Shown here: positions 5,743 to 18,435 of the stretch, piece by piece
Layout: every line of letters starts with the position of its first letter
How positions within the stretch are numbered: position 1 is the stretch's first letter
DNA from: Malassezia furfur
Taxonomy: Eukaryota
Strand: one strand, 5' to 3'
Assembly: GCA_052055015.1 (NCBI GenBank)
Contig: JBQJIT010000001.1
DNA: 42,338 nucleotides
Made by a program: the position numbers and the translations under genes
The notes under the pieces: model-generated
Database searches by the model: none
Seen by the model: only the letters and a program-made list of their open reading frames with translations
What the model was told of the DNA's origin: nothing

Positions 5743-5797
5743 CCTGTTTGGTTAAGTGACGCACCTGTCGAACGAGAGCTCGCTTCAATGGGTTGGT

Positions 5798-5956
5798 CCA
5801 ATCGTCCTGCATGCTCGCTAATGCCTGGAATCGAGATGCCGAATGCGAGAGCTGTCGCATGTGATTCGATAGATTCAAACCAATCGTGTATCCGAATACC
5901 TATTTCGGGGACGCTCCCACAGCCATATCCAATCAAATTCTGATTACGTACATTGG
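5798..5956. promoter_or_regulatory. Cluster of four CCAAT boxes in the longest intergenic region
   Basis: CCAAT at 5798, 5880, 5929 and ATTGG at 5952, upstream of the ATG at 6291. Confidence 0.4.
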
Positions 5957-6290
5957 AGCGTGGGTGGAGCTTATGCACAAGTCGATTCCCGATTAAGCTC
6001 CCAGCGGCGTCGCCAACAGGCACCGGTGGTCCGGTGTGGCCAAGCGAGAGTGTGCAGCCGCGTCGCTCGACAGCCCGAAACCACTTCCATCTTTCCAGAA
6101 TTGCGGCTTCTTTGAAGAAGGACAGCTGCTTTTGAAGGCCGCGCAGCTCGTCACTTAATCTACCGAGACCTACCGCACGAGTCAGACACGGGAGCTACCC
6201 GCTCAGTGTCACACCAACTACTCGGCCCACGGTCTTTCTCACCCCTCTTACCTGCACCTCTCACTGCGTGTCACTGGACCTTTGTTAATC

Positions 6291-8495
6291 ATGGCCGCAC
6301 CAATACAAATATCGCACGCATCCTCGAGCCATTTCCATCACCGGCAACCAGTCGAGTATATGTCACTACCCGCAGCGCTACCCGCGTTGACCGTCGCAAC
6401 CCATGCCAGTCGCGCGACACCGATGGCCGTGTCATTGTCTGGCGCGTCGCGGGCAAGCGAGCTTCTCACGCAACAGCTACAGAATATCACAGTGGGCTCT
6501 CTGCGCCTCCCGCGGCGTCCGCGCCGGACCAGCTCATCTGAGAGTGATCCGCGGCGCCTTTGCTCGACGCGGAGGTCACCGTCTCGGGAGCGGGACGACG
6601 AGGGGATATCGATGCGGCTCAAGGGCCTCCCGTGCCTTGCACAGACCAGTGCGTTCCACTCGTCGGCCAAGCTGTGTATGCAGCCCTCCCGAGATCGGTC
6701 TTTGTCCCCCGTCGAGACGAGTGTGTCTCCGGTGGACTCGTGTGCCTTTTCCCCGCCCGAGATCATGACACCGTACAGTGTTTTGTTCAATCGGTCGCAA
6801 GAGGGGAGCGGGACGGAGAGTATCACCCCTGGGTCGTCGTGGTCTTCGTGTTCCAAGTGCAGTGGCAACAGCTCCGAGCCAGGCGAGACGCACAAATCGG
6901 TCTCAATGGCACTGGAGAGGACGCTTGGGAGCAAAAGCCTTTCGACGTCGCCCGAGAACGGGTTCCTTGCGCCCAGCAGCACGCTGTTCGTTCAGCGCGC
7001 ACCGGTGAAGCGTCCGGTGTACACGCGGCGGCGGAGCAAGAGCGACGTAACTCCTCGTGCTGATGCATGGTCCCTGCTGCAAGACGATACCGCAACGATT
7101 GGTGCGACCAGCGACCGTGACTCTGCGACGGCATCGTGTGCGTCGTCGATCCACAGCAGCGCCGACGACGCCGATGTGCCATCCGCGGCAACGCCTGTGG
7201 CACCCAATACCACGAGCGAGGCCGTGGAGCGCTCGCCGAAAGGCCCTCGCGACTTCTCCGCATACGTGTCGGGGATCGGCTCGCCCATTGACCCCGACAC
7301 CGAGTTCTCGTCGGTGGCCCAACTGCAGACCTTCCGCATCCACTCGCGCAGCCGCAGCGTCGGACCGGGCGACATTCGCAGCGAGCGTCTCTCGCACCGG
7401 CGATACGCGAGCGGGTTTGATTCGTCCGCACGTGCAATGAGCACGCAGGAGCGCTCGCGTGTCTTGTCGCCGCGCCCCCCGCTACTCAACGTACGCGACA
7501 CGGAGCTGATCCCGTCGCTCTCGGCCCTCGGCGCCGCGGTGTGCAACCCCGGGTACAATCTCAAACCGCACCCCGGTGCAAACGAGTCGAGCACGCGCAC
7601 CGATGAGCATGCACCGCCGGCGTCGCCGCGTCTGTGTGCACACCCCCAGGCACCGCTGATTATGGACGGCGTGCTGCACCTCGATGCGATCCCGGATGCC
7701 TCGGTCGACGAAAACGGCTTTCGCACGGTTGTCTCGCGCGGCGCGCGGCGCCGACAGCGCCGCGATAGCCAGCGTGCCTCGCGCCGCCCCGTCGAGGACC
7801 CGGAGCCAATCCGCCCTGAGGACATTCCCGAGCCCATCGAGCGCGCGCCGCGTGAGGAAGTGGACGAGGAGGACCTCCGCGGCCGCTCACGAGGTCGTGG
7901 CCGGCGCGGGCGCTCGCGTGCGACCCAGGTGCGTGTGTCGGGCGCTGCACCGCTCGGTACGAGCAACTCAGTGCTCGCTGCACGCCCGCGGCGCTCGCGC
8001 CGCACGCGGACGTCGGGTGTGACGTACGCCGCAGCGGCGACTGCCGGGCGCGACCGCTCAAGTATGACGGCCGAGGCGGCGATGGACACCCGCGGACGCC
8101 GGGGGCCGATCAAGATCGTCAACTCGTCCGAAAGTGACGGTGGTCTGACGCCGGTCCTTCCGCCCCCCCCGCGTGTGAGTGGCAGCCCGACCCCTGAAGC
8201 TGGGGACGACGACCATGTGCCGCGCCCGCGGCTGCTAAGCAACAGCGCGCATCTGCTCATGCTCAGCTTGGAACTTGCCATGATCCGCAACCACAAGATT
8301 ACGGCGCCGCTCAAGCCGCGCTGGGGCAAGCGCCGCGATGACGATTTCCGGCCGATCCCCAACCCGCAAGCACGGGCCAAGCTGCTCCTCGCGCAAGGCT
8401 GCGTGCCGACCATGGCGCCCGAGGCGCATGCACTTGCTGCATGCCCGCCGCCGGACGAATGTGGTTCGAAACTGAAACATGTCTGGTCGCTTTAA
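6291..8495 (+). CDS. Hypothetical Ser/Arg/Pro-rich, probably disordered protein with a short ordered C-terminal motif
   Basis: About 734-codon intronless ORF filling the gap between GDI1 and the next gene; low complexity except LLSNSAHLLMLSLELAMIRNHKITAPLKPRWGKRRDDDF. Confidence 0.75.
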   Translation: MAAPIQISHASSSHFHHRQPVEYMSLPAALPALTVATHASRATPMAVSLSGASRASELLTQQLQNITVGSLRLPRRPRRTSSSESDPRRLCSTRRSPSRERDDEGISMRLKGLPCLAQTSAFHSSAKLCMQPSRDRSLSPVETSVSPVDSCAFSPPEIMTPYSVLFNRSQEGSGTESITPGSSWSSCSKCSGNSSEPGETHKSVSMALERTLGSKSLSTSPENGFLAPSSTLFVQRAPVKRPVYTRRRSKSDVTPRADAWSLLQDDTATIGATSDRDSATASCASSIHSSADDADVPSAATPVAPNTTSEAVERSPKGPRDFSAYVSGIGSPIDPDTEFSSVAQLQTFRIHSRSRSVGPGDIRSERLSHRRYASGFDSSARAMSTQERSRVLSPRPPLLNVRDTELIPSLSALGAAVCNPGYNLKPHPGANESSTRTDEHAPPASPRLCAHPQAPLIMDGVLHLDAIPDASVDENGFRTVVSRGARRRQRRDSQRASRRPVEDPEPIRPEDIPEPIERAPREEVDEEDLRGRSRGRGRRGRSRATQVRVSGAAPLGTSNSVLAARPRRSRRTRTSGVTYAAAATAGRDRSSMTAEAAMDTRGRRGPIKIVNSSESDGGLTPVLPPPPRVSGSPTPEAGDDDHVPRPRLLSNSAHLLMLSLELAMIRNHKITAPLKPRWGKRRDDDFRPIPNPQARAKLLLAQGCVPTMAPEAHALAACPPPDECGSKLKHVWSL

Positions 8496-8681
8496 TTGTG
8501 GCACCTTTGTACAACACTTTTCATGTGCTCCTACTGCGTTTTTTGTACTTTACCACCGCCAATAACTGTAGTTTACGATTAGTGTACGGAGGCTGAAATT
8601 TCCCTCGAACTCCACATTGACCCTGGGCAACCGCCCGATCCGCCCGGGCCTGGCGTCCCTCGTCTTTTCATCTGATCCACC

Positions 8682-8978
8682 ATGGTGCTGTTCCGCTCGA
8701 CGAACCTGCTTCGCACCACCCGTGCGCTCCCTCGTCTGCGTGCCTACTCTACGGAGGGCCCCAAGAAGACCATCAATGAGGCCTCGCACAATGACACAAA
8801 GAAGGCCGGCAGCAACGTTGGTCTGATTACCTTTGGCCTTTTGGGCGCTGTAATTGGCGGTGTCTACTTCTTCAGCGACGACGCGAAGTCTTCGCTCGCC
8901 GGCGGCAATGCTGCGGGCGATAAGTCGGTTATCTCCCAGCAGAAGGAGGGCAAGATGGTGTCGCCGTTCCAAAAGTAA
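8682..8978 (+). CDS. Small (98 aa) putative mitochondrial single-pass membrane protein
   Basis: ACCATGG start context, Arg-rich presequence ending RAYST, hydrophobic segment VGLITFGLLGAVIGGVYFF, coding-like codon use. Confidence 0.7.
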   Translation: MVLFRSTNLLRTTRALPRLRAYSTEGPKKTINEASHNDTKKAGSNVGLITFGLLGAVIGGVYFFSDDAKSSLAGGNAAGDKSVISQQKEGKMVSPFQK

Positions 8979-9094
8979 GGTTGGTGCCACCCAGATCAAC
9001 CACTCCTTCACTCCTCTCGCCGGGGCCAACTGGCCGGTCTGGCCCTTTCCCGATGGCCTGACCGCACAAGCCCGTCCGTAATGCCCCGCCCCGG

Positions 9095-9123
9095 ATTGGG
9101 CGCACGTCCGGTGTATAGCCAAT
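9095..9123. promoter_or_regulatory. Inverted pair of CCAAT boxes upstream of CCP1
   Basis: ATTGG at 9095-9099 and CCAAT at 9119-9123. Fungal cytochrome c peroxidase genes are known CCAAT-complex (Hap) targets. Confidence 0.4.
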
Positions 9124-9255
9124 GAAAGGATGCGTATTATGCAATCATGTGCGACGCCCGAGCACCGTGCCAAATGAAATGTGGTGCGGCTCGTTCGAGC
9201 AGCCGGCGCCGCAGGCAGGTCCGCTAGCGTGCTTCCCTCGTAACCGCCGTGTCTT

Positions 9256-10629
9256 ATGTCTTTCGCACGTAACGCACTCCGTGTCTCGCGCTCCGTGCGC
9301 GGTGCCCCGGCACTGCGCACGGCCGCTGTACCGCGCTCGGCGATCCCGCGTTCTGGGCTTGGGGGCGTGCGCGCCTATAGCTCCGAGCGCTCCCGGACCT
9401 ATGCGGAGGAGTCGGGCATGTTCCTCACGGTAGCGATGGTCACGGCCGCCATGAGCTATGCGTTTATTGTCCGTGACGATTTCAAGTTCTGGCTTGCTGG
9501 TGACATGTCGGAAAACAACGAGAAGAAGACGCACCGCGGCCTCGACAAGATGAAGGACGTCAAGGTCGAGGGCATTGACAAGAAGGAAGAGGATGAGGCC
9601 CACGAGGCAGTCACTGAGGCGCTTTCCGACGAGGACGAGGAAGAGGAGAAGAAGACGGGCAAGAAGAGTGCCGCGGGAGCGGCGGGCGCGGCGGGCGCGG
9701 CGGGCGCGGCGACTCAGGCGGCCAAGCCCAGCGACGACAAGCTGCCCACGCTGGAAGACTACCAGAAGGTCTACAACCGCATCGCCGAGTCGTTGGAGAA
9801 CAACGACTTTGACGATGGTAGCTACGCCCCTGTTGTCCTGCGTCTGTCGTGGCACAGCAGCGGCACGTACGACACCAAGACCAAGACGGGTGGCAGCAAC
9901 GGCGCCACGATGCGTTTCGAGAAAGAGGCCGGCTACGAGTCCAACGCTGGCCTGCAGAATGCCCGCAAGTTCCTGGAGCCGTTCAAGGAAGAGTTCCCTT
10001 GGATCTCGTACTCGGACCTCTGGACGCTTGGCGGTGTGTGCGCGACGCAGGAGATGGGTGGTCCCGAGATCCCTTGGCGACCGGGCCGCGAGGACGAACC
10101 GGAGAGTGAGACGCATGCCGACAACCTGCCGGATGGTACCGAAGACCCCAAGCGCTTGCGTTCGCTCGGTGAGCGCCTTGGCTTCAACGACCAGGAACTG
10201 ACGGCTTTGGTCGGTGCACATGCCATGGGCCGCTGCCACACATACAACAGCGGCTACGACGGCCCCTGGACCTTCTCGCCGACCTCGTTTACCAACGCCT
10301 TTTACACCGAGCTGCTCGACACCAAGTGGTCGCCACGCAAGTGGGACGGTCCTTTCCAGTACCAGGACCCCGACAAGCAGCTGATGATGCTGCCTGCCGA
10401 CTACGCATTTTTCGAAGACCCCAAGTTTAAGGAGTACGTGAAGCGCTACGCAGAGAGCGACGACGACTGGCGCAAGGACTTTGCGTCGGTGTACTCGCGT
10501 CTCCTGGAGCTTGGTGTCCCGGAGGAGAACTTCAAGAAGGGTGCCAAGGGCCTTGGATCGGATAAGCCGATCTACTTCAAGACGCTCGCCGACCAGGAGA
10601 ACGAAAAGGAGGAAAAGAGCGACAAGTAG
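9256..10629 (+). CDS. CCP1: Mitochondrial cytochrome c peroxidase
   Basis: Distal [22 protein letters not shown], proximal [20 protein letters not shown]; bipartite leader. Confidence 0.95.
9670..9711 (+). repeat. 9-bp GCGGCGGGC-type coding minisatellite (Ala-Ala-Gly)n in the CCP1 linker
   Basis: gccgcggga gcggcgggc gcggcgggc gcggcgggc gcggcg. Confidence 0.8.
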
Positions 10630-15439: not shown

Positions 15440-17832
15440 ATGACGGCCGGCATCCAAATTGCTATCGGTACGGCACGCGGGCATTGTACTGACCACAGAC
15501 CGTGGAGGTACTTTTACAGATTGTCTAGGCCGTATCCCTGCAAAGAACCCGGGCGAGGAGCCGCGGGATATCGTGATTAAGCTTCTTTCTCGCGACCCCT
15601 CTAATTACAAGGATGCACCCACCGAAGGGATCCGGCGGATTCTGGAAGCCGCCACGGGCCGCAGCATTCCACGCTCTGAGAAGATTGCCACGCACGATAT
15701 TGGTATGCTACGCGCTTACAACAGAATACATTCGTCTTTCCACGACCGTTGCAACCAACGCACTGCTGGAACGCACGGGCGAAAAGCACGTCCTCGTGAC
15801 CACCCAAGGCTTCCGCGACATTGTGCGGATAGGCAACCAGGCGCGCCCTGCCATCTTTGACCTGGCCATCCATAAGCCCGACGTTCTCTATTCTGAGGTT
15901 CTCGAGGTTGATGAGCGGGTAACAGTGGTAGGTTACACGTCCGATCCGAAAGCGCGCGAACATGCGGTGCAATTTGTGTCGACGGTTCGTGATGCCCCTA
16001 TCAAGAAGGAATACTCGGGCACGGACCTACCGCCCAGCGCGGGCGCTGCCGGTGCCCCCTACGTGGCGCCCGACATTGTCCAGGGGATTTCTGGGGAAGC
16101 TGTCGCCGTCTTGAAACGCCCCAATCTGGAGCGCGTGCGGAAGGACCTGAAGAAACTGTACGATGACGGTTTCCGAAGCCTTGCCATTGTGTTCATGTAC
16201 AGCTACACGTTCCCAGAGCACGAGCAGGCTGTGAAAAAGTTAGCACAAGAAATTGGCTTCCCCAGCATCAGCTGCAGCGCCGAACTCATGCCCATGATCA
16301 AGATGGTTCCCCGCGCGACCTCGACTACGGCCGATGCATACTTGACACCCGTGCTGCAATCCTATATTAACGGCTTCTTTGCGGGATTCGATGCGTCGCT
16401 GCGCGATGGCACCGCCGGAACCCGGGTCGAATTCATGATGTCGGACGGTGGACTTACGTCAGTGGAGCACTTCAGTGGGCTCAAGTCCATCATCAGTGGG
16501 CCTGCCGGCGGTGTCGTTGGCATGGCGCTCACCTCGTACGACAAAGACGATGGGCGCCCCTGCATCGGCTTTGATATGGGGGGCACCAGCACGGATGTGT
16601 CGCGTTTTGCCGGCCGCTACGAGCAAGTGATGGAAACCACCATCGATGGCGTCACAATCCAGAGTCCGCAACTCGATGTCAACACGGTTGCTTCTGGCGG
16701 CTCGTCGCGTCTCTTTTTCCGGAACGGTTTGTTTGTTGTCGGTCCCGAATCAGCCTCCGCACATCCCGGACCGACGTGTTATCGCAAGGGTGGACCGCTT
16801 GCCATCACGGATGCCAATCTTGTGACCGGACGCCTGGCTGTCGAGATGTTCCCCAAGATCTTTGGTCCAAACGAAAACGAGGGACTAGACGAAGTGCAGT
16901 CGCGCAAGGCATTTGAGGACCTCACGCGCAAAATCAACCAAGAGACGGGGCGTGACATGAGTGTTGACGAGGTGGCACAAGGGTTTATCCGTGTAGCGAA
17001 CGAGGCCATGTGCCGGCCGATCCGCTCACTGACTCAGGCGCGCGGCTACTCGACCTCGAAGCATGTGCTGTCTAGTTTCGGGGGAGCTGGCGGCCAACAT
17101 GCATGCTCTATTGCGCGGTCGCTTGGGATCTCTACCGTGGTGGTCCACAAATACTCTTCGATTCTTTCCGCCTACGGTATGGCCTTGGCAGACCGTGTCT
17201 TTGAGGCGCAGCAGCCGTGCAATGAAGCATGGGAGCACACCACTTCGCCGGATCTTTCCAACGCACACGGCCGCATCCAGTCGCGCGTTGAAGAGCTCGA
17301 GAAAAAGGTCGTCCAGGAGCTCGAGCGCCAGGGCTTTGCCAAGGACCGCATTCACACCGAAGTGTTTTTGCACATGCGCTACGACGGGACGGACACTTCG
17401 CTAATGACGCTCAAGCCCGCCGACTCTTGGGATATGGAGAAGGTCTTCGTGAATGCATACCGCCAGGAATTTGGCTTTGTGCTCGACAATCGACAGATCA
17501 TTGTTGATGACGTCCGTGTCAAAGCGGTGGGTCGCTCGTTCGACTCGCTCGGTCCTTCCGTGCTTGGAGAGCATGCAGAACAGATCAAGAAGCAGGGAGA
17601 TCACGCCTTTACCAAGGCCAAAGTTCTCGATACTGCACCGCGTCGCGACGTTTACTTTGACAACTTGGGTCGCGTGCCGACTGCAATTGTGCGTCTGCAG
17701 GATTTGGAGCGCTTTGAGAAGGTCGATGGCCCTGCGATCCTCATTGATGAAACCCAGACGATCCTGGTGGAACCGGACTGCGAAGCACGTATGCTGAGCC
17801 AAGCGGTTCTCCTCGACATTCACTACAAGTAA
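15440..17832 (+). CDS. OXP1: 5-oxoprolinase, N-terminal (hydantoinase A / ATPase) half only
   Basis: [55 protein letters not shown]. Introns 15468-15498 (31) and 15703-15724 (22). Stops at LLDIHYK with no hydantoinase B half. Confidence 0.88.
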
Positions 17833-17913
17833 GCAAAGTTACGTAGGCATCCCCAATGGACCTCCCCAGCGTTCCGGTGCACAGGCCAAGTGGAGTGGGG
17901 TTCCCTCCGAATT

Positions 17914-18435
17914 ATGATTAACTGGGACCTGGTCCAGGCGCACAAGGATGCGCTGATGCAAGACGCTATCGCGGCGAAGGACTTGTCGTACTCCCCGTAT
18001 AGCAGCTACCGTGTGGGCGCTGCACTCCTGCTTGACGACGGGACGCATGTCCAGGGCGCGAATGTGGAGAATGCGTCGTACGGTACGTGGCGAGCTTATC
18101 CAGGATGTGCCATTTGCGCAGAGCGCACAGCAATTGTCAAAATGAAAACAACCCCCGAGCTGCGTACTCACAAGATCCATGCAGTTGCCGTCTCATCGGA
18201 TGGGAGTGAGCCGTGCTCGCCGTGTGGTGTGTGTCGGCAGGTGCTCCGCGAATTTTGTGTGGGGCACACCGTGTTTTTCATGCCGAATCAGCGGTGGAAG
18301 CCGCAAGGATACCAGGGCAAAGCAATGTCGCTTGCAGACCTGCAAGAAGACAACGTACTGGTCCTCGACATGGAAGCGTTGCTTCCCGTGAGCTTTGGGC
18401 CCTCGATGTTGGGCCAAGAAGACTTTTCTACATAG
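17914..18435 (+). CDS. CDD1: Cytidine deaminase
   Basis: SYSPYSSYRVGAALL, NVENASYG-CAICAER after removing the 21-nt intron 18083-18103, SPCGVCRQ zinc motif. Confidence 0.93.
   Translation: MINWDLVQAHKDALMQDAIAAKDLSYSPYSSYRVGAALLLDDGTHVQGANVENASYGTWRAYPGCAICAERTAIVKMKTTPELRTHKIHAVAVSSDGSEPCSPCGVCRQVLREFCVGHTVFFMPNQRWKPQGYQGKAMSLADLQEDNVLVLDMEALLPVSFGPSMLGQEDFST

Follow-up and report, generated by a model that had tools for sequence, protein, structure and literature searches.

The gene at positions 15,440 to 17,832 of the window, a stretch of 42,338 nucleotides from Malassezia furfur (contig JBQJIT010000001.1), encodes only the A (ATP-binding) half of 5-oxoprolinase. With a probability of roughly 0.86, it is the A subunit of a two-gene 5-oxoprolinase, which derives from a single fission in an early basidiomycete and in which A and B reassemble in the manner of the bacterial CapAB. 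The split is real, old and intact, but it is ordinary for basidiomycetes, it is visible in annotations and its architecture is known from bacteria. The first-pass annotation had proposed that fission gave a two-subunit enzyme whose B half is encoded at another place, and this is supported by stand-alone B proteins in M. furfur and many other basidiomycetes. The split is not a peculiarity of this locus, as that annotation had treated it, since basidiomycete matches are as a rule A-only proteins with this same end at the linker.

Gene model and domain content of the A gene

The window is gene-dense and fungal. The 779-aa product is read on the plus strand from the ATG at 15440 to the TAA at 17832 after removal of two GT-AG introns (780 codons). 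Exon 1 (15440..15467), which is placed by a gap-free match to WFD46044.1, is followed by a 31-nt GT-AG intron (15468..15498) that splits the first codon of the phosphate-1 motif. Exon 2 (15499..15702) bears most of this motif, DRGGTFTD (residues 10-17), and a second GT-AG intron of 22 nt (15703..15724), found at the same site with the same length in the related locus L004, separates it from exon 3 (15725..17832), which encodes the remainder of Hydant_A_N, Hydantoinase_A and Hydant_A_C and ends with LLDIHYK-TAA at the A/B linker. An intact open reading frame of about 780 codons with this end had been described earlier; its length and end are correct, but not the single frame, because two introns are needed and the longest ATG-started frame without splicing is 15613-17832 (739 aa). 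The window protein has 96.4% identity to the annotated M. furfur WFD46044.1 over 779/779 residues without gaps, which is the same gene model, and its best protein match is M. furfur CBS9595_001348, with 98.7% identity over 709 residues.

Introns in the window are very short, with 31, 22 and probably 21 nt, the last one at 18083-18103 in the neighboring deaminase gene. The A gene of L004 (about 5750-6001) has introns of 25 and 22 nt at the same two places as the window gene, and the database models P0001, P0005, P0010 and P0363 are mis-spliced at short introns, with the phosphate-1 motif lost or distorted.

The Pfam models Hydant_A_N, Hydantoinase_A and Hydant_A_C all score over cut-off (132.9, 322 and 33.3 bits for PF05378, PF01968 and PF19278, against cut-offs of 25.2, 22.9 and 21), and Hydantoinase_B has no match in the gene. 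The ATP-binding motifs of the ASKHA type, as defined for the caprolactamase CapA (PMC8453981, section 2.1), are all present. The phosphate-1 motif is the one described above, the phosphate-2 motif is DMGGTSTD (residues 361-368; 16573..16596, plus strand), which aligns with DMGGT of CapA, and the adenosine-binding motif of the GxxPGP type is SAHPGP (residues 422-427; 16756..16773, plus strand), which aligns with GANPGP of CapA and starts with Ser instead of Gly. The motifs thus show no decay, as first noticed.

The M. furfur B protein has no tblastn match at E<=1 in the 42-kb window, and three fused fungal proteins used as TBLASTN queries give significant matches from their A halves only. The stop is located in the linker, about 9-14 residues ahead of the conserved B-half start of fused fungal proteins. 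The first reading that the window lacks hydantoinase-B sequence is therefore confirmed by Pfam and by tblastn with the M. furfur B, and its placement of the stop at about the A/B boundary by the alignment to fused proteins. The fused architecture, one chain of about 1,290 aa with A and B, differs from that of the window gene, which has 779 aa and its stop in the linker. The next gene is a cytidine deaminase (17914..18435, plus strand; PF00383), as first identified, which is a neighbor outside the enzyme and whose predicted start codon is uncertain.

Split A and B proteins in basidiomycetes

A species name is attached to 85 of the best 120 among 8000 matches of 386-1229 aa. Of these 85, 84 are basidiomycetes, mostly Ustilaginomycotina and Agaricomycotina, with one Pucciniomycotina, Atractiella, and the remaining one is filed under the fern Adiantum and clusters with Exobasidium. 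None of these 120 short A matches has a B-half match. Among the best 120 of 7999 matches of 1230-3510 aa, 119 have the B half, and the named B-bearing ones belong to ascomycetes, Mucoromycota, chytrids and Zoopagomycota. The sole named basidiomycete among these long matches is Phlebia P0121, which has a NIF domain followed by A, without B. Split basidiomycete A proteins reach at least 834 bits (full-coverage matches), against 788 for the best A+B fusion. A fused basidiomycete orthologue is expected at the top of the long matches, above ascomycetes, and none is among the best 120. No named member of Tremellomycetes or Wallemiomycetes is present in any of the match lists.

An alignment was built with 17 split and 11 fused database proteins and the window protein; 16 of the 17 split proteins are full-length and one is mis-spliced at the N-terminus. 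The last residues of all 17 lie no more than about 7 positions from a single column, which is in the linker before the B start. Two proteins filed under the fern Adiantum nelumboides, P0030 (A) and P0253 (B), cluster with Exobasidium/Meira in the trees and are probably fungal contamination of the fern assembly. P0015 (a WD40-like piece and A), P0093 (A and peroxiredoxin) and P0121 (NIF and A) join the half to a neighbor gene; these, and P0619, an epimerase-named record inside a B cluster, are likely annotation artefacts.

The B half was searched with residues 745-1314 of a fused Basidiobolus protein against proteins shorter than 722 aa. By a simple N-terminal pattern, 72 of the best 120 matches are of basidiomycete type, and the other 48, mostly fragments of fused proteins, were omitted from motif counts. 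The M. furfur B proteins P0374 and P0376 have 590 aa and only the Hydantoinase_B domain, which covers the full model (1-519). Their metal tetrad is formed by D45, H107, D110 and H134, equivalent to D41, H99, D102 and H124 of CapB, and each metal-ligand pattern is kept in 71-72 of the 72 basidiomycete-type matches. All 72 have a Met-led leader, 2-39 residues long (98 in one protein), a weak indication of an own start since gene callers start at Met.

The B half is observed for the species M. furfur through other strains, from which we infer it for the assembly of the window. A and B are not adjacent in one locus. In strain CBS9595, A is on a contig of 3,076,535 bases and B is on contigs of at most 1,622,862 bases. 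Five further Malassezia species have both halves, which are on separate contigs in four of them (M. brasiliensis, M. obtusa, M. yamatoensis and M. caprae), making different contigs in 5/6 species; in M. japonica one contig of 2,114,519 bases carries both, and their accession numbers differ by 279.

No B-only protein of Agaricomycotina is named among the best 120 short matches or in three cluster look-ups, one of which covered 10 further B matches and has only Cystobasidium, Puccinia, Ustilago and ascomycete members. Against representatives at 50% identity, the M. furfur B finds one basidiomycete B-only protein, Tilletia P0329, after which the nameable matches are fused or partial non-basidiomycete proteins (10 of 150 examined). 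P0440 is a fragment that still holds the end of A. By these matches the split appears phylum-wide to the extent that A is found in three subphyla and B in two.

The junction and the origin of the split

Eight related loci (L001-L008) were taken from 116 pattern matches. The order GST-like, WD40, A, cytidine deaminase, ORF18983 is repeated in L002, L003, L004 and L006, while L005 and L007 end inside A, L001 is A alone and L008 is a fused A+B gene. L001-L007 hold no B half. The fused oxoprolinase gene of L008 (5797-9438), in a locus of 41% GC, is 47% identical to the window A and provides a non-split control. The gap between A and deaminase has 81 bases in the window and 698 in L003. In L002 an S1/P1 nuclease gene (8066-9433, minus strand; PF02265, 138.8 bits) sits between the two, which suggests a lineage-specific loss or gain.

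Neither an assembly error near 17830 nor a truncated remnant evolving under relaxed selection has anything in its favor besides the absent half. The M. furfur records P0001, P0361 and P0362 have identical C-terminal residues, the gene order is shared with L002, L003, L004 and L006, the ATP motifs are all intact and the proteins of other named Malassezia species are 75-95% identical across about 700 residues. The conserved ends and gene order rule out misassembly at 17830 as the cause, and the probability left to a misassembly or remnant is negligible. The two outcomes that the first-pass annotation set against its own proposal, such a misassembly or the lack of any B half together with relaxed selection, were both looked for and neither was found, given the shared ends, the gene order, the separate B and the lack of decay.

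Another reading is splicing at the stop. The strong donor AA|GTAAGC that was noticed at 17829 does overlap the stop and, with the AG at 17845-17846, delimits a potential 18-nt intron (17829..17846, plus strand), probably by chance. Its use would imply trans-splicing of A to a B-half exon, the long-range alternative raised at first, or fusion of A to the deaminase by removal of the 18-nt GT-AG segment, as the deaminase is in the frame of A with a single TAA between them. Introns of 21-22 nt exist in the window, and in L003 a donor-like GTGAG lies across the stop, five codons further on, which is mild support. The two strands of the window together contain 12 copies of GTAAGC, however, and GT[AG]AG lies over the terminal stop in 6/98 stop-free stretches of at least 150 codons in the window, which is a background frequency. 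The site is not conserved either, since the stop is not preceded by G in L004 and L006, the GT contexts of L001 and L002 are only weak, and in 43 of the 116 A proteins of 660-900 aa the codon of the last residue cannot end in G. A and the deaminase share a frame in 0/4 other loci (3 distinct) and the nuclease lies between the genes in L002, by which a conserved A-deaminase fusion was rejected. The Met-led leaders annotated in the B proteins also argue, weakly, against an exon joined in trans. The comparison among loci points to a donor present by chance, and its use in either form is very improbable. It is equally improbable that the donor is a working switch by which some M. furfur transcripts would skip the stop and produce a deaminase fusion or, through a trans-spliced B, rebuild the ancestral chain. 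The donor first noticed is thus present but not beyond chance, and the trans-splicing alternative is unsupported.

The origin of the split was examined with quick trees, which have SH-aLRT support only and in which outgroups are long branches and CapAB is absent. The A trees have 44 rows (quick search, mixture model) and, with outgroups, 49 rows (LG+G4); the B tree has 60 rows. The 26 split rows form one clade in both A trees (SH-aLRT 100 and 99), which in the rooted tree of 49 rows is sister to fused ascomycete proteins (SH-aLRT 98), and the 26 split rows of the B tree form one clade (SH-aLRT 99) within fused fungal proteins. By these placements both halves are orthologous to the eukaryotic fused OXP1/OPLAH. 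The phmmer scores to bacterial CapA and CapB are 142 and 135 bits, while fused fungal proteins score as high as 788 bits. On the basis of these scores and the trees, horizontal acquisition of a two-gene enzyme from bacteria was rejected. The split A and split B clades are each among fused fungal proteins, which points to one old fission and not to a bacterial transfer.

The sequences point to fission of an inherited fused gene, most simply once. In an early basidiomycete, a single break at the inter-domain linker would have divided a fused OXP1/OPLAH gene, after which the B half would have acquired its own start and the A and B genes would have become unlinked. It is conceivable that the same weak linker was broken several times independently, since it is a natural break point, as in bacteria, recurrent gene fission is described in fungi (PMC4224340), and some basidiomycete classes are outside the sample. 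Such recurrence is nevertheless highly unlikely, because a single state change is enough on the A and B trees and no fused basidiomycete is among the best 120 long matches.

A and B as subunits of one enzyme

The halves resemble both the fused enzyme and the bacterial two-subunit ones. Relative to fused OXP1/OPLAH (EC 3.5.2.9), A is 51-55% and B 53-66% identical to the best fused fungal proteins, with ATP and metal motifs kept; the difference is that the fused enzyme, the form of yeast and humans, has one chain, whereas the basidiomycete form has two genes, unlinked in most species checked. CapAB (PDB 6YRA), the hydantoinase HyuAB and P. putida OplAB have the same A/B boundary and the same motifs as the fungal halves, and a separate B with the Asp-His-Asp-His metal site is found in M. 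furfur at the species level. In contrast to the fungal halves, which are unlinked and come from fission of a fused gene, capB and capA are neighbors in one locus, and the scores, together with trees that do not include CapAB, speak against descent of the fungal A and B from bacterial two-subunit enzymes. The prokaryotic 5-oxoprolinase PxpABC catalyzes the same reaction with several subunits but is not homologous to the CapAB/OPLAH family (PMC8453981, section 2.1).

CapAB is described in PMC8453981 as an (alpha-beta)2 tetramer with a B-B core, an A-B contact of about 3000 Å2 and a 40 Å tunnel that links the ATP site of A with the metal site of B. In the P. putida oxoprolinase, according to the corresponding part of PMC6061476, A phosphorylates bound 5-oxoproline and hydrolysis needs B. 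A large non-covalent A-B interface would make the linker dispensable and so the fission tolerable. The two domains of yeast OXP1 have reportedly been separated experimentally. The fungal A and B most likely reassemble like the bacterial CapAB. They would be translated separately and assemble as an A-B-B-A tetramer, as modeled on CapAB and the P. putida oxoprolinase, in which A would spend ATP to activate 5-oxoproline (pyroglutamate), the activated intermediate would reach the metal site in the other subunit through the tunnel, and B would there open the ring to give glutamate. The role of the enzyme would be the removal of 5-oxoproline that comes from glutathione turnover and from spontaneous cyclisation of glutamate and glutamine.

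Distances were compared in 20 split taxa, picked for having both halves, and in 18 fused proteins. The median A/B distance ratio is 1.29 in 190 split pairs and 1.25 in 153 fused pairs, and A and B distances are correlated (Mantel r 0.94, 0/5000 permutations), which reflects shared descent and not binding. As far as sequence comparison goes, there is no sign of decay in the split A/B pairs. It is unlikely, though the least improbable of the alternatives, that the genes are split and A no longer partners B as 5-oxoprolinase, having another partner or substrate or acting as a lone ATPase. Unlinked genes are free to diverge in regulation, CapAB hydrolyzes ATP even without lactam substrate (PMC8453981, Table 2), and A is somewhat faster relative to B within Malassezia, with ratios of 1.26-1.69 (10 pairs, in which two A models are mis-spliced near the N-terminus). 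Extra partners may also exist in C. neoformans and R. toruloides, each of which has three '5-oxoprolinase' entries in the sources given below. These points are outweighed by the presence of both halves in 20/20 paired taxa (chosen so) with matching distances, by an overall rate ratio that is the same as in fused proteins, and by the metal tetrad kept in nearly all basidiomycete-type B matches. The preferred reading is still that A and B form one 5-oxoprolinase.

Both halves are already separate database proteins, namely WFD46044.1 (A) and WFD48811.1/KAI3624692.1 (B, 590 aa) in M. furfur, and UMAG_00080 for the B of Ustilago maydis. The annotated halves are named '5-oxoprolinase (ATP-hydrolyzing)', each labelled as if it were the whole enzyme, and no functional test or subunit statement was found for those of Malassezia and Ustilago. 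No description of the basidiomycete split was found in the literature searched; the tables of Leonard & Richards 2012 may list it, Kumar & Bachhawat 2010 may bear on its novelty, and one small supplementary file of Durrens 2008 has no match for the fission. The division into two genes explains why several '5-oxoprolinases' are listed in omics papers on basidiomycetes. Sections of PMC7067042 and PMC11982011 mention three genes called 5-oxoprolinase in C. neoformans, two of them at the consecutive loci CNAG_06872 and CNAG_06873, and three 5-oxoprolinases in proteomics of R. toruloides. Each set of three may consist of A, B and one additional copy, or include an adjacent A/B pair.

The literature has the eukaryotic 5-oxoprolinase as a long-chain enzyme, a homodimer of single chains of about 137 kDa in the parts of PMC6061476 and PMC8453981 that treat it, and much of a fungal phylum appears to use two unlinked subunits. 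In these fungi a single knockout or a single cloned gene would represent half an enzyme, and the separable subunits would be useful for the mechanism of the eukaryotic enzyme. Should a full survey place a single fission at the base of Basidiomycota, the split would be a clean synapomorphy, and also a natural example of how a tunnel-coupled enzyme can outlive the fission of its gene.
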